Of a stretch of 64,000 bases of DNA, positions 11,471 through 33,158 are shown one piece after another. Made by a program: the position numbers and the translations under genes. The notes below the pieces were generated by a model. The model saw only the letters and a list, made by a program, of their open reading frames with translations, ran no database searches and was not told the origin of the DNA. How positions within the stretch are numbered: the stretch's first letter is position 1; each line of letters opens with the position of its first letter. Source of the stretch: an archaeon (GTDB lineage: Archaea > Micrarchaeota > Micrarchaeia > Anstonellales > Bilamarchaeaceae); contig JAGVNI010000007.1 of NCBI GenBank assembly GCA_020053355.1, positions 5,557-69,556 on the forward strand, given 5' to 3'.

Positions 11471-12556
11471 ATGCGCATTGTCCTCAAGCTAGGCAGCTCC
11501 CTGCTCAATGGCGGGCGGGGGGTGAATACGATATTCATCGACCAGCTTGCGAGCCAGATACTCGGGATGGAAGGCCACGAATTCGCGATTGTCACATCTG
11601 GCGCCATCTCGACCGGGATGAAGAAGCTGAACCTCGCGCAGAAACCCAAGGACGTGGCCATGCTGCAGGCGCTTGCGGCAATCGGCCAGAGCGACCTCAT
11701 GAACGCATACGAGAACGCGTTCGAAGACCGGAGGACGCTCGCGCAGGTGCTTCTCACAAACTACGATTTCTCGAACCGCATGAAATACATGAACATCCGG
11801 AACACCCTCAATACGCTGCTTTCCCACAAGGTGATACCGGTGATAAACGAGAACGATACGGTGACGGTGCTCGACATCAAGAAATCCGCGTTCGGCGACA
11901 ACGACGCCCTCGCGGCGCATGTGGCTGTCGCGATTGACGCCGACCTCCTGCTGATTTTCACGGATGTGGAGGGCCTCTACGACCGCAATCCCACGGATGC
12001 CGGCGCGACGCTGATACGCGAGGTCAAGAGCGTGACGGATACTGAGCTGGGGATGTGCTCCGGCGAAAGCGCGCTCGGCCGGGGCGGCATGGCCGCGAAG
12101 CTGCGCGCGGCCAAGATAGCGACCGAAGCCTCGGTGAAAGTCATCGTGGCGAATGGCACGGCCAAAGACGCCCTTCGCAAGGCCGTTGCGGGGGAAATCG
12201 GGACGTCGTTCGTCCCGGCGCAGACGCCGAAATTGTCCGAAGGGAAGCACTGGCTCGCCTTCGCATCCGAACCTAAGGGCCGCATCATCATAAAGGAAAG
12301 CGCCATGTCGTGCGCGATAGGCAAAAGCTGCGGAATCGCCCCGGGCGATGTCACCGGAGTCAGCGGCAATTTCGACAAGGGTGATGTAATCGAGCTGGCG
12401 TCTTCGGACGGGAGAGTGCTCTGCAAGGGCATCACGAATTATTTCTCGCATGAACTGGAGCGCATCAAGGGCAAGGACCTTGAGTCGATATGCCGGGAAC
12501 TGGGCTTCGTATATACGGAAGTCGTGGGAAGCTCGGACATGGCGGTCATAGGTTGA
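11471..12556 (+). CDS. proB: glutamate 5-kinase with C-terminal PUA domain
   Basis: Amino-acid kinase family N-terminal domain (VLKLGSS...VTSGAI) and C-terminal PUA; length 361 aa typical of ProB. Confidence 0.9.
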   Translation: MRIVLKLGSSLLNGGRGVNTIFIDQLASQILGMEGHEFAIVTSGAISTGMKKLNLAQKPKDVAMLQALAAIGQSDLMNAYENAFEDRRTLAQVLLTNYDFSNRMKYMNIRNTLNTLLSHKVIPVINENDTVTVLDIKKSAFGDNDALAAHVAVAIDADLLLIFTDVEGLYDRNPTDAGATLIREVKSVTDTELGMCSGESALGRGGMAAKLRAAKIATEASVKVIVANGTAKDALRKAVAGEIGTSFVPAQTPKLSEGKHWLAFASEPKGRIIIKESAMSCAIGKSCGIAPGDVTGVSGNFDKGDVIELASSDGRVLCKGITNYFSHELERIKGKDLESICRELGFVYTEVVGSSDMAVIG

Positions 12557-19949: not shown

Positions 19950-20714
19950 ATGGCCAAGTCGCAAAAAAAGCGGGTTAGCCGCCCTGGGAAATTGTCTGCA
20001 AAGAGAAAGCCCAGTTCACGCAGCCCAGTTCCTGATGCAAAACCGCTTCCAAGAAAGGAATTGCCGGTAGTGAGACCGACACCCATCGCCGTTCCCATTC
20101 AAATTCCCGACCCGGCGAAATCCACCTCCCCGCCGCCGGAAGGCCTCAAGATGTGCCAGGGCTGCCAGGCCGCCTGCTGCGACCTGAGGGTAGACCTCAC
20201 GCCCTTCGATATCGCCCGCATCGTCCACCAGGAGAACAGGAATCCCAACGAATTCGTCGAATTATTCCAGGCGCAGAATAACGACTCGTTCGGCTTCCGC
20301 ACCAAGCACGGCCGCGTGAAGATGATACTGAAGCGAGAGGGCGGCACATGCGTTTTCAAAAGCAGCGGCGACCTGAAATGTGTCATAGAGAAATCAAAGC
20401 CGGCCGTATGCCTCGTATACCCGTTCAGCGTGAATTACGGCATCCCGTACATACGGCGCGATGTCATCTGCCCAAAGGAGAACCGGGACCGGGCCGACCG
20501 TTCCAAGATGTCCCGGCAGACGATAAACGACAGCGGCTGGGAAGCCCGCCGCTACGAGGAAACCATATTCCTCTGGAACAAGCATGCCAAAGGCACGGAA
20601 GACCTAAGCCGTTTCCTTGCGTTCGCTGCCACTGAACTTGATGCCGACCGCTCCCCAATTAGCGGCCTGAAAAAGAATCTCGGGCGCTTCATGCTCAGGA
20701 TTGGCCTGCGCTGA
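19950..20714 (+). CDS. YkgJ-family CxxCxxCC putative Zn/Fe-binding protein with basic Pro-rich N-terminal tail
   Basis: CQGCQAACCDL motif (UPF0153/YkgJ family); about 65-aa Lys/Arg/Pro-rich low-complexity N-terminus; paralog at 61322..61879. Confidence 0.55.
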   Translation: MAKSQKKRVSRPGKLSAKRKPSSRSPVPDAKPLPRKELPVVRPTPIAVPIQIPDPAKSTSPPPEGLKMCQGCQAACCDLRVDLTPFDIARIVHQENRNPNEFVELFQAQNNDSFGFRTKHGRVKMILKREGGTCVFKSSGDLKCVIEKSKPAVCLVYPFSVNYGIPYIRRDVICPKENRDRADRSKMSRQTINDSGWEARRYEETIFLWNKHAKGTEDLSRFLAFAATELDADRSPISGLKKNLGRFMLRIGLR

Positions 20715-21252
20715 ATGCGCTGATTATGCCCTCAAGGCTCCCGTTGATGCCGAACCTGTCTGTTATTATCGTGCCGTTAACCAGGACCTGCGGCACAAGC
20801 CTCTGGCTCTGGCTGAGGTTCGATTCGTTCGCGAACTGCTGGTAAGCCCAGGTGCCGTTTTGCGTCGTGATGTCGAATTCCCTCCATTCGACATCCCCGT
20901 ATCTCTCCTCAAGCCGGGTCATGTCCGGCCGGAGCGCCTTGCATGCCGAGCAGTATGTTGAATAGAAGTAATTGACGATGAGCCTGCCATCCGGCGTGGT
21001 GGTGTTGGTGAAGTCGAAGCGGGGCGGCACGAACGGCTTGGTATCGGTGTTCATGACGTCGCTGGCGTTCCGCGAGAACGAGAGGTTCAAGGTGCTAGGT
21101 AATGACGGCGTTTGTTCGGGCTGAACCTGCGGTTCCGATGGCGATGCGTCGGCGGTGGTATTCGCGCCGGTTGCGGGGCTTTTCGCCGCGCATCCGAGAA
21201 GGAGCAGTATTATCGCGGTGAAAGTGACGGTGATTGCGATGGCGCTTCTCAT
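20695..21252 (-). CDS. secreted/membrane-anchored thioredoxin-fold protein
   Basis: Signal/anchor MRSAIAITVTFTAIILLLLGC when started at the internal ATG (21252); thioredoxin-like YFYSTYCSACKAL (CxxC) followed by a ...VPQVLVNG block; 9 N-x-S/T sequons. Confidence 0.55.
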   Translation of the reverse strand: MRSAIAITVTFTAIILLLLGCAAKSPATGANTTADASPSEPQVQPEQTPSLPSTLNLSFSRNASDVMNTDTKPFVPPRFDFTNTTTPDGRLIVNYFYSTYCSACKALRPDMTRLEERYGDVEWREFDITTQNGTWAYQQFANESNLSQSQRLVPQVLVNGTIITDRFGINGSLEGIISAFSAGQS

Positions 21253-21414
21253 AATTCCATATCCGCGTGCAGGATTATAACTGTTATCGCAAGCCGGCGG
21301 GCGTTCGATTCCCATATGGGGCCCCACAAAATCCGGCATGATTTTTGTGGTTTGGAAGCACATTATCGGATTAATCTATTTATTGCCAACACACTCCGGC
21401 TTTTTGGGGATGAT

Positions 21415-26982: not shown

Positions 26983-28569
26983 TCATCCGAGGTCAGCTGC
27001 GAACGCATCGACGGATTTAAGGAACGCTTCCGTCTCCTCCGTGTTCGTCAGGCCGGTCACCCTTATCAGGCTGGGGTGGTTCGACCACCGCTTTTGCGGC
27101 AGGAACGACTGCCCCGGCACGCAGTTGACCACCGGCACGCCCGGCGCATCGAGTGCGAATTCGCCGAATGCCACAGCCTGGTTGAAGCCGCTGCCATACC
27201 TTTCGCTGAGCCTCGAAAACCCGAAGAGCAGGTAGAACGACGAAAGCGTGTCCGGTTCAATCCCCCCGTTCTTTCCCGCATGGTCGTAGTATTTCGCGAG
27301 ATAGACGCCCTTGATTCCGCTTAATGCCTCCGCGACGCGCACGAGGTTCGTATTGATGAGTTCCCGTCGCCGATTGAAGAAGGCAATCGTTTCCTCCATC
27401 AACGCCGGGTCATTCTCGAGCTTGTCGAAGAAATTATTGAACGCCATCTGGAGCGGCAATCCCACGACGCCGAGGGTGGGCAGGAGCTTGTTCTCTATCG
27501 CCTTGAAATAATCCGCCCGATGGTCCGGAAAAAAGTCCTCCGGCCAGTGGATAGCAAGCTTGCCAAGCCTCCATCCGCATGTGCCATACCCCTTCGACGA
27601 CGTGTCAAGTACCACGACCGGCGCCCGGACCTTGTGCTCAATCGCGATTTGGATGGGGTCAAGCGGCTTCCCGTCCCTCCGGAACGCCTCGTATGCCACA
27701 TCCACAATCGCAAGTATCGGCCTTCCCGCCTTCAGGCCGGCATCGCCAATCATGTTCAGGTGCTCGAGGATGTCCGCCTGCGTCATCGCTGCTCCGACCG
27801 GGTTCCCGATGGGTGTGAAGACGACTGCCTGCACCTGATGGTCCATGCGGCGCTCATCTGATAAAATGCGCCTCAGGCTCTCGCCGTCAGGCCTTCCGTC
27901 GTCGCGGCACTCGTAGCTCTCGATATGCGCCCCCCGGTAATACGCCGCGCCAAGGTGGATGATGTACGTCCAGTCATGGACGACCGCGGTATCTTCAGGT
28001 GCGAGAATCGCCGGGCCCATCGCCAGTTCGGCCGCATAGCTCCCGCCCGCGGTCACATAAACGCGGACATCCTTGAACCTGTCGGGGTCGTTGTGTGCGC
28101 TTTTCGGGTCAGAGAAACCCATCCGTTTAAGCTTTTCAAGAAGCGGCGGATAGCCGAACGAGTGCGTATATCCTGCGCTTTCCCTGACTATCGACTCGTC
28201 TTCCATCGCAAGCTGGCCCTTGCATTCAATCACCCGCCGGTTCGGGGGGTAGTCGCTGTATGCGCTCGGGTTGCCTAGTGACATTCCGAGTATCTCCTTG
28301 GAGCCGTCACCCGCAAGCCCGCGCTTCTTCACTTCCCTCCAGACGCCTTCAGGCCCGAACTTGCCCCGGAAGCGGCGGAATTCGGCAGCGCCCATGCTGG
28401 TTTCCAATACAGCAAGGTTCCTTTCTGTGGCCTTGCGCAGGACGTCCTCGAGGCCGGTCCTCCGCAACGTGGTCAGCCCCATCCTCCCGTACGTCCTTGC
28501 CGCGTGGTCCCTGAACCTTTCAGTCCGAAAGTAATCCCCGTTTCCCATATGGCTTCGCCTCCCAACCAT
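26983..28569 (-). CDS. PLP-dependent aminotransferase (class I/II fold), long form
   Basis: SSKGYGTCGWRLG (Schiff-base Lys in the SxSK..G..G.R.G context), GNP/D-Y motifs; 528 aa with extended N-terminus. Confidence 0.6.
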   Translation of the reverse strand: MVGRRSHMGNGDYFRTERFRDHAARTYGRMGLTTLRRTGLEDVLRKATERNLAVLETSMGAAEFRRFRGKFGPEGVWREVKKRGLAGDGSKEILGMSLGNPSAYSDYPPNRRVIECKGQLAMEDESIVRESAGYTHSFGYPPLLEKLKRMGFSDPKSAHNDPDRFKDVRVYVTAGGSYAAELAMGPAILAPEDTAVVHDWTYIIHLGAAYYRGAHIESYECRDDGRPDGESLRRILSDERRMDHQVQAVVFTPIGNPVGAAMTQADILEHLNMIGDAGLKAGRPILAIVDVAYEAFRRDGKPLDPIQIAIEHKVRAPVVVLDTSSKGYGTCGWRLGKLAIHWPEDFFPDHRADYFKAIENKLLPTLGVVGLPLQMAFNNFFDKLENDPALMEETIAFFNRRRELINTNLVRVAEALSGIKGVYLAKYYDHAGKNGGIEPDTLSSFYLLFGFSRLSERYGSGFNQAVAFGEFALDAPGVPVVNCVPGQSFLPQKRWSNHPSLIRVTGLTNTEETEAFLKSVDAFAADLG

Positions 28570-28649
28570 GGATATATGTGATAATTAGGCAACCAACTTG
28601 GGTGGAAGCTTTTTATGCCCTTCTGGGATTTCCGGGACGGTTGTCGTAA

Positions 28650-28706
28650 TTCGTAAAGGAATAGTTATGTAAAAAAACCTAAAAAAAGAAAAGAAGATAA
28701 ACAAAC
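28650..28706 (-). terminator. oligo-T terminator region downstream of radA
   Basis: On the radA mRNA strand the sequence after the stop is T-rich (…tttatcttcttttctttttttaggttttttt…), the usual archaeal intrinsic terminator signal. Confidence 0.5.
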
Positions 28707-29687
28707 TCAGTCGGTAAGCCCGCCCGGAGTCACCCTGAAGACCGCCTCGCCTTCTGGCATGTTCGGCGAGTCGACCAGCCTCGCAATCCTCTTGTCGTCC
28801 TTGCTTTTGCGGACATAGAGCCGGTAAGTCGACATGTGCGCGAGCACGTGGCCGCCAATCGGGGTCGTCGGGTCGCCGAAGAGGATTCCCGGGTTGTCCA
28901 TGACCTGGTTGGTCACGTACACCGCGAGGTTGTACTTCTCGGACAGTTTCTGAAGCATGTGGACGTGCTTGTTCAATTTCTGCTGCCTCTCGCTTAGAGC
29001 CCCGCGTCCGATGTAATCCGACCTGAAATGCGAGGTGAGCGAGTCGATGACGATGAGCTTGATGTTGTTCTTCTCTATCGTCTCCTCGGATTTCTCGAGC
29101 AGGATTATCTGGTGGTCGCTGTTTTCAGCCCTTGCGACGTGGATGCCCCTTAGCACTGCTTGCGGGTCCATGCCCTGCGCCTCTGCCAGCTGCGCTATCC
29201 TGTCCGGCCTGAAGGTGGCTTCAGAATCAACGAAAAGCACGCTCCCCCCAAGCCCGCCCTGCTCCACCGGCCTCTGCACGTTCACGACGAGCTGGAACCC
29301 GAGCTGGCTTTTTCCGCTCGAGAACTTGCCGTACATCTCGGTGATTGCCATCGTTTCGATGCCGCCCCCCAGGAGGTCGTCAAGCGCTTGGGACCCGGTC
29401 TTGATTCTCACGATATTTTTGCGCCTCTCATAGACGACATCAGCCGTCTCGAACCCGATTTCGACCATGCTCTTTGCGGCTTCAATCGCCTTCTTGGCCG
29501 ATTCGACGCCCATCCCGCCCGCCTCAGCCAGTTCGTGCGGATTAGCTGTCGCAAGGGAGGCGAACTCGCCGAATCCCGCGGCCCGGAGCTTCTCGGCCGT
29601 CACTTCGCCTATTCCCGGAAGGTCTTCCAGGTCTTTGTAGTATTTCTTCTTATTCTTGTCCTTATCCTTGTCTTTTTCTTCTGCCAT
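28707..29687 (-). CDS. radA: DNA repair and recombination protein RadA
   Basis: N-terminal HhH (LEDLPGIGEVTAEKL), Walker A GKFSSGKSQL, Walker B LIVIDS, archaeal RadA length (326 aa). Confidence 0.95.
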   Translation of the reverse strand: MAEEKDKDKDKNKKKYYKDLEDLPGIGEVTAEKLRAAGFGEFASLATANPHELAEAGGMGVESAKKAIEAAKSMVEIGFETADVVYERRKNIVRIKTGSQALDDLLGGGIETMAITEMYGKFSSGKSQLGFQLVVNVQRPVEQGGLGGSVLFVDSEATFRPDRIAQLAEAQGMDPQAVLRGIHVARAENSDHQIILLEKSEETIEKNNIKLIVIDSLTSHFRSDYIGRGALSERQQKLNKHVHMLQKLSEKYNLAVYVTNQVMDNPGILFGDPTTPIGGHVLAHMSTYRLYVRKSKDDKRIARLVDSPNMPEGEAVFRVTPGGLTD

Positions 29688-29761
29688 ATGAATCCCCTGT
29701 ATAATTCATCATCATTCTGTTTCCAGCATCATGCTTCCTGCCCCGGTCTTTCACCCAATAT

Positions 29762-30064
29762 TCATTTCCGATCATTGGGGAAAACGAGCAGCTTCAGTTG
29801 CCCGATTCTGAGGGTGTAGAACACGTTCCCGTTCTTGGAGACGTTCTTCCACATGCCGCCCACGTTCGAATAAACGACATTCCCGTCCTTGTCGCGGTCG
29901 GTCTGGACAACGCGCAAATCCGGCCGGTTCGCTCCTGAGCTTATCGCGCCCGGTGTGTTGCTTCCGCTTCCAGTTCCCTGCCCCCCGCTTCCTGTTTCGG
30001 GTTTCGGATCAGTTGGTATCTCCTCGAAGCCTTCATCATCCAATTTTTCTTCCGTGTCTTTCAT
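29762..30064 (-). CDS. small hypothetical protein (weak resemblance to DUF736 half-repeat)
   Basis: 100 aa; Gly/Ser/Thr-rich N-terminal half, C-terminal GGMWKNVSKNGNVFYTLRIG block. GGAGG about 12 nt upstream; a palindrome-flanked TATA-like element lies further upstream. Confidence 0.35.
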   Translation of the reverse strand: MKDTEEKLDDEGFEEIPTDPKPETGSGGQGTGSGSNTPGAISSGANRPDLRVVQTDRDKDGNVVYSNVGGMWKNVSKNGNVFYTLRIGQLKLLVFPNDRK

Positions 30065-30121
30065 TTATTCCACCTCAACTTTTCCTCCTTTTTTCATGTT
30101 GGTGAAAAGTCCAATCAAAGT

Positions 30122-30312
30122 CCATTAGTATAAACATATAGTTATACGTATATACTAATGGGATTATGGGCGGGGCTATATATAAACACAATCCGGCAGT
30201 TCATTTCCGCAGAAATCGACATCTCGATTTCTGGGCCCAATGAACACGTCGTTGTCATGAACGTCGCTACGTTCATGAGCATGCTCATGGTCGATGCGTC
30301 GACCATGACATC
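30122..30312. repeat. cluster of five consecutive inverted repeats (hairpins) in noncoding DNA
   Basis: IR1 CCATTAGTATA-N18-TATACTAATGG (30122-30161) around TATA-like sequences; IR2 AGAAATCGA-catc-TCGATTTCT (30211-30232); IR3 TCATGAACG-tcgcta-CGTTCATGA; IR4 perfect 16-bp palindrome CATGAGCATGCTCATG; IR5 GGTCGA-tgcg-TCGACC (IR3-5 within 30254-30312). Confidence 0.8.
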
Positions 30313-30405
30313 ATTAGGGCCGCGGAAGAAGAAGCCCCAAGATATCCTTTGCCCCTCTATTTGTTGGATATGGCTCACGCTAAAAGAAAAGGATATTGAG
30401 GCCCT

Positions 30406-30660
30406 TCAGGTCGGCTTCAGCAGGTTGGCGGACTGCTCGGTGATGAAGCTCGCAGCCCCGGTTATGGCCATGACGATTATCCCGCCAACGACCATCCCGA
30501 TTGCGACCGTCTGCCACTTGCCGCGCGTCTCGCCCGGCTGTGTCTGGGCGATGCCGTAAGTGATTCCGCCCGCCGTGACCAGGATAATCGCGATAGTCGG
30601 CGCAAGGGCCGAAAGCAAAGAAGCGATGTTCGATGCAGCTACTTCCAATCCGGTTGCCAT
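30406..30660 (-). CDS. small hypothetical membrane protein (two hydrophobic helices; pilin-like?)
   Basis: 84 aa with two long hydrophobic segments separated by QTQPGETRGK; the architecture resembles VirB2/TrbC-type small pilins, but that is not established. Confidence 0.3.
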   Translation of the reverse strand: MATGLEVAASNIASLLSALAPTIAIILVTAGGITYGIAQTQPGETRGKWQTVAIGMVVGGIIVMAITGAASFITEQSANLLKPT

Positions 30661-30719
30661 CGTAAAAAATAGGCCAAAACACCTTTAAATATCTTTCTGG
30701 GCGGCCGCCTTGCGTCATC

Positions 30720-31730
30720 TCAAAGGCGGGCCAGCTTTTTCACAAAATCCACAAGGCGGTTGGAATACCCGTATTCGTTGTCGTACCAGGCGGAAACCTT
30801 CACCAGGCGGCCCTTCGACTTCGTGAGTTTCCCGTCCACCAGGGACGAGAGCGGCACGCCGACCACATCCTGCGAGACTATCTCGTCTTCCGTATAGCCC
30901 AGCACCCCTTTCAATTCCTCGTTCGACGCCCGCTTTAACTCGGCGTTTATCTCGTCTTTCGTCGCATCCCGCCCTAGCAGGAGCGTCATGTCGTTAATCG
31001 AGCCGCAGGCGACCGGAACCCGGAATGCCACGCCATCCATCTTCCCGGCGAGCCCCGGGAGCACCTCGCCAATCGCCTTCGCCGCGCCGGTGCTGGTGGG
31101 GATTATGTTCATCGCGCCCGCGCGCGCCCTGCGCAAGTCGCTGTGGCTGCCATCCACGATGTTCTGGTCGTTCGTATAAGCATGCACGGTGCTCAGGAAT
31201 CCGCTTTCTATGCCGAATTTCTCGTCCATCACTTTGAGGATTGGCGCAAGGCAGTTCGTGGTGCAGGAAGCAAGCGAGAATATGCTCATGCCCTTGTTCA
31301 CGATGTGGTCGTTGACACCCGGAACTATCGTGGCGTCGACTTCCTTCGCGTCTTTTGCAGGGGCGGAAATGAGCACCATCTTCGCGCCTGCCTTTATGTG
31401 CTTCTCGGCGTCCGCTTTGGAGCGGAACGCGCCCGTGCTTTCAAGGACGAGGTCAACCCCCAGCTCCTTCCACGGGAGTTTCAGCGGGTCTGTCTCGGTA
31501 ATCCATTTGATTTGGTATCCATTGATGATGAGGTTGCCGTCCTTGGCTTCCACCTTGCCGTCGAACCTTCCATAGACCGAGTCGTATTTGAAAAGGTGGG
31601 CATGCTGCTCGACAGGGCTCCTGGTGTTGATTGCGACGACATCGAAGTCCTTTCCGAGCGCGCCCTGCTTGATTGCTGCCTTAAGGAACGATTTTCCAAT
31701 CCTGCCGAATCCGCTTATGGCAATCTTCAT
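30720..31730 (-). CDS. gap: glyceraldehyde-3-phosphate dehydrogenase, type I (bacterial/eukaryotic type)
   Basis: NGFGRIG Rossmann motif and the class-I active-site signature ASCTTNCLAP; 336 aa. Confidence 0.9.
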   Translation of the reverse strand: MKIAISGFGRIGKSFLKAAIKQGALGKDFDVVAINTRSPVEQHAHLFKYDSVYGRFDGKVEAKDGNLIINGYQIKWITETDPLKLPWKELGVDLVLESTGAFRSKADAEKHIKAGAKMVLISAPAKDAKEVDATIVPGVNDHIVNKGMSIFSLASCTTNCLAPILKVMDEKFGIESGFLSTVHAYTNDQNIVDGSHSDLRRARAGAMNIIPTSTGAAKAIGEVLPGLAGKMDGVAFRVPVACGSINDMTLLLGRDATKDEINAELKRASNEELKGVLGYTEDEIVSQDVVGVPLSSLVDGKLTKSKGRLVKVSAWYDNEYGYSNRLVDFVKKLARL

Positions 31731-31787
31731 ACGCTCACCTACAAGTAGTGCTAATACCCATAGTAGCGGAGGTTACGCTAATAATCC

Positions 31788-33158
31788 TTACTGCTGCCGC
31801 TTATCGCCTGCTGCGATAAGCGATGCCTCGCGAATCAGTTCGTTAACCACTTCCTTGACGAAACCCTCCTTCGCCCTGATTGCGCCAGCTTTCGCGTGCC
31901 CCCCGCCGCCTTCGACAAAATCCGCCATGCTTTTTTTCACGCGCTCGGCAAGTTCGTTCGCGGAGAGGCCGAGGGACACCGCGCCATCATCCAGCCTCAG
32001 GATGATTGAGCGCTCGGTATATCCGATGCACAGGAGCGGCTTCTCAGCGCCCGCCGCTTTCGCCTCGTCCCTTAGCGTGTCGAAAACGCGCGTAGTTATC
32101 TTGCTTGAGGGGGGCCATTCGCCCTTCACGACAATCCCTTCAAGAGGGAATGTTATGATTGTAAGCTGCCCGGTTTCGCTTTTTTTCATCCTCGCCATCG
32201 CCTTGGCGGCCGCATCCCGGATGGAATCGTCCGCCTGCTGGGCAATCGAAGAGAACAGCTCGTCCTTCTCCATCACCTTCTTGTAGAAGTCCAGGTTATT
32301 GCCGAAAGAGACATGGGATGCCAAAAAATCCAGCACCATCGCCTTCTTCGCGTCGTCCGGCCCGCTTTGGAGGATGTCGCTCTTGTCTCCTGAGCAGGCG
32401 ATTTTCGCAAGCGCAAGTGCCCTTTCTTTCTCCAGTCCGCATGCAGCCGCAATCTCGCATGCAAGGTAGCCTGCGGTATATTTCGAAGCGTTGTCGTCTT
32501 GGGAAAAAGGATTGATGATGCGCGCGTCGTCCTTCCTCGAATACGGGTGGTGGTCAATCACCAGGCAGTCTATGCCGGCAGCGCGAAGGAGCTCCAGCCC
32601 TTCAGCGCAGCCATCGGCGGAGCCGAAATCCAGGAGTATCACGAGCGGACGGCTTTCCTGCCCTATCGCGGCTATGTCCCGGAGGGCTTCCTTCACGCTG
32701 TAAATCGCCGAATTCTGCTGGAACGCCTTGCACGGGAGGACCGCAGTCAGCGCGAACGCCCCGCATATGCCATCGGCATCACCGTGGAACCTGAGCATGA
32801 CTGAACGGCCGAGCTTTTTTGCCAGCATCGCTTCCAAGGCTCCCCTAATCAACGCAGGCCACAACCTGCCCGTGAGGCCGTCATTGAAAAGCACCGGCGC
32901 GCCAGGAAGGTTCGCAGCCTCAGCCACATTGGCCGTCACCCGCGCAAAAACCCGCCCTTCCGTTTCCCCGCTTAGCGTATCTATGCGCGTGGCCCTTATG
33001 CCGCCGACAGCCATCTCGCCCTCGATGAGGATGCATGAGCCCTGCGGGATGATGTCGTCCGTGAAGAACTGGTGCTCGGTTTTGCCGTCGGTAAGCACGT
33101 AGTCTCGCTTGCCCCGGAAAAACCTCACCCTGCTGACTATTCCTTCAACGGCAATCAT
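31788..33158 (-). CDS. DHH-family phosphoesterase (archaeal RecJ/GAN-like)
   Basis: DHH motifs HGDADGICG, VIDHHP and DHHA1 GGGH; N-terminal OB-like extension; 4-bp overlap with upstream rbkR. Confidence 0.7.
   Translation of the reverse strand: MIAVEGIVSRVRFFRGKRDYVLTDGKTEHQFFTDDIIPQGSCILIEGEMAVGGIRATRIDTLSGETEGRVFARVTANVAEAANLPGAPVLFNDGLTGRLWPALIRGALEAMLAKKLGRSVMLRFHGDADGICGAFALTAVLPCKAFQQNSAIYSVKEALRDIAAIGQESRPLVILLDFGSADGCAEGLELLRAAGIDCLVIDHHPYSRKDDARIINPFSQDDNASKYTAGYLACEIAAACGLEKERALALAKIACSGDKSDILQSGPDDAKKAMVLDFLASHVSFGNNLDFYKKVMEKDELFSSIAQQADDSIRDAAAKAMARMKKSETGQLTIITFPLEGIVVKGEWPPSSKITTRVFDTLRDEAKAAGAEKPLLCIGYTERSIILRLDDGAVSLGLSANELAERVKKSMADFVEGGGGHAKAGAIRAKEGFVKEVVNELIREASLIAAGDKRQQ

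Follow-up and report, generated by a model that had tools for sequence, protein, structure and literature searches.

The window analysed here, a 64-kb stretch of the Micrarchaeota contig JAGVNI010000007.1, contains at about 30 kb a noncoding gap of 341 nt that is crowded with inverted repeats and lies close to radA. The genes around the gap are on the minus strand (plus and minus refer throughout to the window as read) and encode, in order, a DHH-family protein, GAPDH, an 84-aa membrane protein (mem84), then, beyond the gap, a 100-aa protein (p100) and RadA. In our reading the gap probably holds two independent neighbours, namely a conserved promoter and operator of p100 (feature A) and an inserted palindromic element that resembles bacterial repetitive extragenic palindromes (REPs) and is probably mobile (feature B). 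The genes next to the gap and the principal repeats in it are the following.

28707-29687, minus strand: radA, after p100
29762-30064, minus strand: p100, a 100-aa gene, weakly DUF736-like and conserved in Micrarchaeota, the predicted target of feature A
30122-30132 and 30151-30161: the arms of inverted repeat 1 (IR1), CCATTAGTATA and its complement
30210-30233: accessory hairpin hp1, CAGAAATCGA-CATC-TCGATTTCTG, of the CAGAA...TTCTG type; several copies of feature B have such a hairpin ahead of their doublet
30255-30278: hairpin hpA, TCATGAACGT-CGCT-ACGTTCATGA
30274-30289: the 16-bp palindrome CATGAGCATGCTCATG
30285-30308: hairpin hpB, TCATGGTCGA-TGCG-TCGACCATGA
30406-30660, minus strand: mem84, the 84-aa membrane-protein gene

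An earlier note on this stretch had described five inverted repeats here, at a density above background, and both observations were confirmed. All five are present as listed and are far from chance. Hairpins hp1, hpA and hpB each consist of a perfect 10-bp stem with a 4-nt loop, and IR1 extends to 19-nt arms that are 89% complementary, with a nested TATACGTATA at 30143-30152; two or more IR1 matches were obtained in 1 of 100 shuffles. A census of perfect stems of at least 9 bp with short loops over the 64 kb, using Markov simulations as the null, gave 13 hits at nine loci against a simulated mean of 3.3, and three of these nine loci fall within 100 bp at the gap. Folding of 30205-30330 as DNA yielded z-scores of -8.5 (plus) and -8.7 (minus), and folding of 30195-30375 as RNA yielded -5.2 (plus) and -4.8 (minus). 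Three further pairings had been overlooked: an outer stem formed by GGCCCAATGA (30234-30243) and TCATTAGGGCC (30311-30321), a closing stem TTTCCGC (30204-30210) / GCGGAAG (30322-30328), and a sixth repeat pair (30331-30350 / 30388-30407). The two open reading frames (ORFs) called across the gap (30142..30378 and 30158..30559), already judged to be without support, had no match in a Pfam scan, and the DNA beneath them varies among relatives. A coding role for the hairpins was rejected in view of their covarying stems, in-frame stops and the two ORFs without a Pfam match, and these ORFs are best removed from the annotation. Neither a tRNA gene nor a match to Rfam 15 at gathering score was detected in the 64 kb.

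A search with RadA recovered 80 loci, nearly all labelled as Micrarchaeota metagenome-assembled genomes (MAGs), the closest with 97% identity, and the same gene order was seen in the six closest loci examined (L-numbers below denote such loci of related MAGs or metagenome contigs). The spacer between mem84 and p100, 341 nt long in the window, is shorter in L001 (173 nt) and in L006 (260 nt). BLAST comparison of the gap with the 80 loci showed that about 25 loci have a counterpart of 30117-30216, in a constant position upstream of p100, and that three loci alone, at differing places, have one of 30229-30312. These contrasting matches divide the gap into two parts.

The hairpin cluster is absent from the orthologous spacer of L001 (RadA 97-98% identical), of L006 and of L132 (p100 94% identical); in L132 a different sequence takes its place between AGCGTGAG and CCGCGGAAATGA. 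The three sites where BLAST located the cluster elsewhere belong to three other MAGs, L018, L002 and L003. The L018 copy lies in the GAPDH-mem84 spacer, which measures 30-70 nt in relatives, and that of L002 lies in the p100-radA spacer, where the DNA in excess of L003 is exactly the double hairpin. The L003 copy (L003:7499-7609) is a 111-nt insert, made of the double hairpin and its flanks, inside mscL, into which it brings in-frame stops. Subtracting the insert restores the frame and an intact conserved MscL by comparison with L006 and L013, and about 100 downstream codons are intact; the interrupted gene is either a recent pseudogene or one whose insert is removed from the RNA. The four copies, including that of the window, thus occupy four sites in four lineages, each site being empty in other genomes. 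Judged by this comparison of sequences, feature B is a compound palindromic repeat that was inserted in this lineage specifically, with the following parts.

30204-30328, no strand: the whole compound element, closed by TTTCCGC / GCGGAAG
30234-30321, no strand: outer palindrome P1, enclosing a decayed hairpin remnant (30240-30253) and the doublet
30251-30312, no strand: the core double hairpin, GTTGTC - hpA (30257-30276) - GAGCATGCTC (30277-30286) - hpB (30287-30306) - GACATC

The core is an inverted doublet with its tags outside, each monomer consisting of TGTC, an 8-bp stem, a CGNN loop, the complementary 8-bp stem and GAG. In the window the core begins with GTTGTC, the family consensus being GATGTC, and the covariance model R1 scored it at 85 bits on the plus and 79 bits on the minus strand. 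The surrounding parts also have counterparts elsewhere: P1 corresponds in L018 to GGACC...GGTCC, a compensatory change; the outer stem CCAAT...ATTGG is common to P1 and to the 119-nt composites of L099, L104, L082 and L129; and hairpins of the hp1 type, with compensatory changes, occur in L018, in L088 and in both copies of L092. The window copy represents a decayed composite, made up of hp1, outer stem, inner-hairpin remnant and doublet. It lies in the 3' region of mem84, just upstream of the p100 promoter, and is flanked by imperfect 8-nt direct repeats, CCGCAGAA (30207-30214) and CCGCGGAA (30320-30327), about 105 nt apart, which may represent a target duplication.

Next to the element, the sixth inverted repeat (30331-30407) has 20-nt arms that are 75% complementary, the far arm overlapping the mem84 stop. 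Its inner arm (30331-30350) lies in a window-specific spacer unlike that of L132 or L006, suggesting a local inverted duplication at the insertion; the far arm (30388-30407) is conserved in L132. Neither a pattern search nor the R1 model with filters off found further copies of the palindromes in the 64-kb window. Two other perfect 10-bp hairpins of the window are CGCTTATCGC-CTGCT-GCGATAAGCG at 31798-31822, in the last codons of the DHH-family gene, and GATGTCGAAT-N7-ATTCGACATC at 20869-20895, inside ORF 20695-21363; the latter shares GATGTCG...CGACATC with the doublet ends, probably by chance.

Window, L018, L002 and L003 share the signature GATGTC-hairpin-GAGCATGCTC-hairpin-GACATC, with compensatory changes in the hairpins. 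A scan of JGI metagenomes with the pattern GAGCATGCTCA-N18-TGACATC returned 51 stretches, of which 23 have an intact 10-bp hairpin in the N18 segment. Those 23 also have features that lie outside the search pattern, namely an upstream second hairpin, a preceding TGTC and the loop classes described below, and most of the other stretches match by chance, for the larger part in DNA that looks coding, with L090 and L125 as possible degenerate copies. Family members take three forms: a bare doublet of about 60 nt; a doublet inside a palindrome such as CCATTGTTCG...CGAACAATGG, 85-93 nt; and a four-hairpin composite of about 119 nt, in which outer stem and hairpin stand on both sides of the doublet. 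Copies in different contexts have sharp homology edges and compensatory differences. Because outer palindromes of similar type also occur without a doublet, it appears that other palindromes accommodate the doublets in their loops. Other short hairpins without a tagged doublet were seen as well (L100:207-252, L118:1787-1835, L109:572-634 and L019:5330-5376), for example ATGAACGT-CGCA-ACGTTCAT followed by GGTGCCCATTGTTG...CAACAATGGG, and several intergenic palindrome families seem to be present in these archaea.

Pairing in the doublets was assessed over 28 copies, in which 94.9% of cells are paired in the proposed structure (94-99% in the two hairpins) and double changes affect 14 of 25 pairs, a result reached in none of 500 shuffles; slid controls collapse. 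The 437 cells of the two hairpins include 420 Watson-Crick, 3 G-T and 8 A-C combinations, without strand bias. Loops are mirror images, reading CGNN in hairpin A (21 of 28) and NNCG in hairpin B (23 of 28), and R1 gives near-equal scores on both strands. The TGTC that precedes hairpin A in at least 90% of the copies is absent from the search pattern, and every doublet monomer reads TGTC from its own strand. Hairpin B starts with an A-T pair in all 28 copies, followed in 25 of them by T-A or A-T; the first pair of hairpin A is G-C in 23. The 3-nt tail is GAG in all copies, in part forced by the search pattern, and GAG is also found in L092:714-776, a copy detected with the model. In about 1 Mb the monomers occur almost exclusively as inverted pairs 31 nt apart, with some six background singletons; control tags gave 2-5 hits. 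The covarying stems, Watson-Crick on both strands, and the dyad-symmetric pattern indicate that what is selected is the ability of either DNA strand, or of both transcripts, to form hairpins. With one doublet in the 64-kb window, two on a single 3.2-kb contig (L092) and four independent sites among about 35 related loci of 9 kb, the genomic density may, as a rough estimate, be of the order of ten doublets per Mb.

Of the copies, eight or nine are flanked by convergent genes and ten by co-directional genes (five in each orientation relative to the neighbours); one lies between divergent genes and one inside mscL. The L108 copy, possibly intragenic at first sight, was found to be intergenic, the upstream ORF merely running into the element. 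The flanking genes are unrelated archaeal-type housekeeping genes (Nre, TYW3, ribosomal L32e, SHMT, an aminoacyl-tRNA synthetase and one orc1/cdc6). No transposase and no recurrent neighbour gene was found among 64 flanking ORFs, a motif scan of the loci and window (1.04 Mb) revealed no ORF with an HUH...Y motif, as expected of a REP-associated tyrosine transposase (RAYT), the single-copy Y1-HUH enzyme that the repeats flank in REPIN-RAYT systems, and viral contigs, phage records and plasmid records contained no match to the family. The repeats beside the copies are inconsistent: those of the window and L003 are imperfect and 8 nt long, those of L082 and L129 have 3 nt, and L002, L099 and L104 have none. 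The length of the inserted unit ranges between about 60 and about 119 nt.

A few copies have particular neighbours. The copy at L089:1004-1184, an outer palindrome with doublet, starts about 13 nt after a tRNA-Gly(CCC) gene. A tRNA-like T-arm sequence stands just upstream of the copy in L094, where ARAGORN called no tRNA. The 119-nt composite L099:4180-4297, the sole copy between divergent genes, occupies the spacer directly upstream of orc1/cdc6 (Cdc6_lid, Cdc6_C), where an origin would be expected.

The conserved part of the gap, feature A (30122-30210), consists of three elements.

30122-30161, minus strand: IR1, two palindromic GTATATAC octamers, a candidate operator at the p100 transcription start or a 5'-leader hairpin
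30179-30186, minus strand: TATA box TTTATATA, 18 nt upstream of IR1 and pointing to p100
30201-30210, minus strand: invariant box GCGGAAATGA, separated by about 12-14 nt from the TATA box that follows it

Iterated nhmmer searches found this block in about 35 loci, always in plus orientation and upstream of p100/radA, and alignment A4 contains 32 of its sequences from the syntenic site in Micrarchaeota genomes. Read along the window minus strand, A4 comprises the GCGGAAATGA box, about 12-14 variable bases, TTTAWATA at the columns of the window TATA box, 10-20 variable bases and IR1. GGAAAT, at window-row positions 9-14 of A4, is the same in every one of the 32 sequences, and the G and C on its two sides hardly vary. 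The consensus of IR1 is CC(A/C)TTAGTATATAC, about 12 AT-rich bases and GTATATACT(N)A(T/G)GG, both GTATATAC boxes being at least 90% conserved. In the window the centres of these 8-bp self-complementary octamers are 20 bp apart; the copy at 30148-30155 is perfect, that at 30128-30135 reads GTATAAAC on the plus strand, and the flanks are CCATTAG / CTAATGG. In most genomes IR1 is followed within 10-14 nt by a GGTGA/GGAGG ribosome-binding sequence and the start codon, the p100 leader being about 45 nt longer in the window, L132 and L133. Paired boxes of the form GTATATAC-N8-16-GTATATAC were present in 23 of 131 loci, solely at the feature A site, and the window has no further IR1-like site, a single-box match at 12507 being unrelated. 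The GCGGAAATGA box may serve p100 as an upstream site, or may mark where a divergent plus-strand transcript begins, driven by the quasi-palindromic TATA box; in some genomes it belongs to a TTCCGCGGAA palindrome.

We read feature A as a putative promoter and operator of p100. The orientation of the TATA box and the distance from TATA box to start follow archaeal promoters in general, and on that basis, with the TATA box 18 nt upstream, the predicted p100 transcription start falls inside the first GTATATAC box. In its dyad symmetry, position and conservation IR1 is a candidate repressor operator. A dimeric or tetrameric transcription factor would bind both GTATATAC boxes, which are two helical turns apart, and would block the recruitment of RNA polymerase downstream of the TATA-binding protein and transcription factor B (TBP/TFB), the usual mode of repression in archaea. 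Archaeal repressor operators, such as those of MDR1, LrpA and Phr, overlap or follow the TATA box, and the IR1 dyad pair likewise stands immediately downstream of TATA, over the predicted start; unlike them, the IR1 boxes are themselves TATA-like (GTATATAC). The operator-like arrangement proposed in the earlier note is broadly supported by position and sequence conservation (at least 32 genomes), but the TATA box (30179-30186) lies outside IR1 instead of being bracketed by it.

A 5'-leader RNA hairpin beside the ribosome-binding site, affecting p100 translation, would explain the same conservation. Counted as a helix, IR1 has mostly invariant columns, one conserved mismatch and one symmetric switch, from A-T to C-G, in 11 sequences, which suits a hairpin and co-evolving half-sites equally well. 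Apart from that switch, the signal in IR1 is sequence conservation, not covariation. Rfam searches at E up to 10 matched IR1 to sub-threshold miRNA models alone (E at least 0.36).

The p100 protein is a hypothetical protein found throughout Micrarchaeota, which some JGI records label as DUF736 family; Pfam gave a sub-threshold match to DUF736 and nothing else, a sequence search of the PDB with p100 returned nothing, and the p100 of the window had no exact counterpart in public assemblies. The protein has an acidic invariant N-terminal motif, E-G-F-E-E, a Gly-rich linker and a conserved beta-rich C-terminal domain, and its AlphaFold model was poor (pLDDT 59.5), too weak for a fold search. The E-G-F-E-E motif resembles the GFETA of RadA itself, the F-x-x-A polymerisation motif, and there are hints that p100 may be a small RadA-binding protein encoded beside radA. 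The spacer between the two genes has a present/absent hairpin of its own, GCCGATGCG-N20-CGCATCGGC, at about L001:3912-3949 and also in L006, L008, L018 and L021, with the compensatory variants GCCGGAGCG...CGCTCCGGC and, in L002 and L003, CCGAAGCG...CGCTTCGG; it is missing from the window, L132, L005, L009 and others.

The nearest described relatives of feature B in architecture are the CGTC-tagged REPs (Di Nocera et al. 2013; PMC3733652). These have a CGTC tag (variants TGTC and CCTC), an 8-9 bp stem with A-T at its first and second positions, a 4-5 nt loop and a 3-nt tail CCA, and occur mostly as head-to-head dimers with the tags outside, between convergent or unidirectional ORFs, sometimes nested in palindromes and occasionally intragenic; their families number about 20 to thousands of units, have no known dedicated transposase and are reported from bacterial phyla only (PMC3733652). 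The doublet monomers likewise combine a TGTC tag with an 8-bp stem, a loop of 4 nt and a tail of 3 nt, and form inverted dimers with tags outside, in convergent or co-directional positions, nested in palindromes and with an occasional intragenic copy. They differ in their archaeal host, in the tail (GAG, not CCA), in an invariant CATG that joins the two units and gives the conserved 10-bp palindrome GAGCATGCTC, in the closing pair of hairpin A, mostly G-C and not A-T, and in an apparently low copy number. The likeness to bacterial REP families is one of architecture, not of demonstrated sequence homology.

In the REPIN concept it is the REP doublet that constitutes the replicating unit (PMC3116915). 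RAYT subclasses have been reported in bacteria only (PMC6006769), and REPIN-RAYT systems were stated to be absent from archaea (bioRxiv 10.1101/2022.05.22.493013). Feature B shares with REPINs a recurring inverted doublet, predicted to form hairpins in single-stranded DNA or RNA and scattered outside genes; unlike REPIN-RAYT systems, it has no RAYT-like gene in 1.04 Mb, and its doublet spacer is only 4 nt. Bacterial genomes with REPINs typically hold tens to hundreds of copies. Two other assignments were rejected, one to miniature inverted-repeat transposable elements, because each subfamily has termini of its own around a conserved centre and there is no uniform target-site duplication, the other to palindrome-associated elements derived from IS200/IS605, which insert 3' of a fixed tetra- or pentanucleotide and have similar subterminal hairpins at their two ends, because the 5' flanks have no common motif and hairpins A and B of one copy differ in sequence. 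Rickettsia palindromic elements (RPEs) and mitochondrial double-hairpin elements are reportedly selfish palindromes that enter genes or other palindromes. Feature B resembles both in its short units, its presence or absence between relatives and its occasional insertion into a coding sequence; RPE insertions are translated in frame, unlike the L003 insert with its in-frame stops, and hosts and sequences are unrelated.

On these comparisons, feature B would be a non-autonomous mobile or selfish element moved by some enzyme, its hairpins being handled as single-stranded DNA as in bacterial REP/REPIN, and whatever the window copy might do as an RNA hairpin (3'-end protection or insulation) would be a side effect. 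The variable ends, repeats and lengths accord better with hairpin DNA being copied into breaks or into hairpin loops than with a classical cut-and-paste transposon; they also leave the RNA-based rivals discussed below with a low probability. We file feature B, by analogy, as working like REP/REPIN and do not claim it as a proven member: the tail, one of the defining features, departs from the consensus, and the features that would weigh most are genomic copy number and a cognate enzyme. The family is one of previously undescribed archaeal REP-like double hairpins. Among the roles offered in the earlier note, the end of a mobile element came nearest, although what lies here is a whole small element and not an end. 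The same note had named wide recurrence of the palindromes as a generic repeat as what would speak against a special role; since the hairpins belong to a dispersed family, such recurrence is seen across related genomes, and not within this window, which has no further copies.

Several observations weigh against this assignment. No transposase or RAYT-like gene stands beside any copy or in the roughly 1.04 Mb covered; target duplications are not uniform and termini not conserved, the centre being constant and the periphery variable, the reverse of ordinary transposons; and the window has one copy alone. Presence and absence may in part reflect deletion of palindromes, not insertion, and covariation would be expected equally from a structured RNA. 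A quasi-palindromic TATA box lies on the plus strand about 25 nt upstream of hp1. For feature A, the leader hairpin beside the ribosome-binding site would account for the same conservation.

If the doublets were kept by their hosts as RNA 3'-end elements (terminators, insulators or stabilisers), which is compatible with a mobile origin and which we regard as unlikely though not negligible, their position mostly after genes (8-9 convergent and 10 co-directional versus 1 divergent) would be expected, it would parallel that of bacterial REPs (PMC3733652), and a strand-symmetric hairpin would serve transcripts from both sides. The copies are however not conserved at orthologous sites, and function alone leaves the strong conservation of GAGCATGCTC and of the TGTC tags unexplained. 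Archaeal termination, moreover, relies on U-tracts rather than hairpins. A scan for promoters and terminators found no sites, but it is made for bacteria and unsuited to archaea. A structured small-RNA gene on the plus strand, transcribed from the quasi-palindromic TATATATA box with its start near 30208 and its end at the T-rich stretch around 30356-30366, with the doublets as a multi-copy noncoding RNA family, is kept at low probability. It would account for the TATA-like TATATATA box about 22-25 nt upstream of hp1, the strong RNA fold (z = -5.2), the strongly covarying stems and the conserved positions at a four-way junction, and the lack of an Rfam match in the gap region (gathering score, E up to 10) is neutral on an RNA family not yet described. 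Such an RNA, like the sRNA or terminator array suggested earlier, is disfavoured by the dyad symmetry of the family and the like scores of both strands, by the near-absence of G-U without strand bias (3 G-T versus 8 A-C in 437 cells), by the 5-to-5 orientation relative to neighbouring genes and by the copy inside a coding sequence; in addition, the promoter block does not precede other copies and the element is missing from near relatives. An intron-like element removed from RNA, which would explain the L003 mscL, seems to us very unlikely. The 111-nt insert is a multiple of three, its removal restores the full conserved MscL with the downstream codons intact, and ARMAN-type archaea have a splicing endonuclease of relaxed specificity; the fold of the L003 mscL, on the other hand, contains no bulge-helix-bulge (two 3-nt bulges, 4-bp helix), the 5' boundary falls inside an 8-bp stem and the 3' boundary in an unpaired stretch, all other copies are intergenic, and a recent pseudogene accounts for the data equally.

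Adjacency of the repeats, and the fact that the cluster abuts the conserved GCGGAAATGA box, would fit the proposal that all five form one multi-operator region for p100-radA, which we nevertheless consider highly improbable: conservation is limited to IR1, the TATA box and the GCGGAAATGA box, and the four hairpins are absent from L001, L006 and L132 and recur at unrelated loci as a dispersed family. A replication origin or recombination site, with unwinding at an AT-rich palindrome, GGAAATGA as a motif similar to an origin recognition box (ORB) and extruded cruciforms, is scarcely credible here. It draws on the roughly 40 bp of IR1 at about 25% G+C in a genome of 57% G+C, on the metagenome copy L099 upstream of orc1/cdc6 and on a likeness of GGAAATGA to part of the Pyrococcus ORB, which we take as a lead, not as a test. 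Archaeal origins usually have several inverted ORB boxes around an AT-rich element, commonly near orc1/cdc6, and a skew switch. The window shows no GC-skew switch at 30 kb, a check that the earlier note had itself proposed; the site has a single GCGGAAATGA box, whose 11 matches in the window versus 8.7 expected indicate neither enrichment nor clustering; orc1/cdc6 is absent among the six neighbouring ORFs scanned (26983-33158); both flanking genes point in the same direction; and the hairpins are not conserved at the site.

REP and REPIN sequences are among the most abundant noncoding repeats of bacteria and are described in the literature consulted, as are RAYTs, as bacterial only. The same unit architecture in ultra-small DPANN archaea would extend the class to a second domain and make the mobilising enzyme worth finding; alternatively, it would show this architecture to be a convergent outcome wherever hairpin DNA can be tolerated downstream of genes. 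We see a rather small chance that the family is a true REPIN-type system spread by a non-RAYT or distant enzyme, or an RNA-level element removable from mRNA. Either, if true, would be without precedent in archaea, contrary to the published confinement of REPIN-RAYT to bacteria, and RNA-level removal, if true, would explain the intact mscL around the 111-nt insert. Because its signature, GATGTC-hairpin-GAGCATGCTC-hairpin-GACATC, is very sharp and the covariance model works, the family is directly testable on complete genomes, and the conserved two-box operator candidate upstream of a small Micrarchaeota-specific gene near radA offers a clean site for finding a regulator in organisms without genetics.

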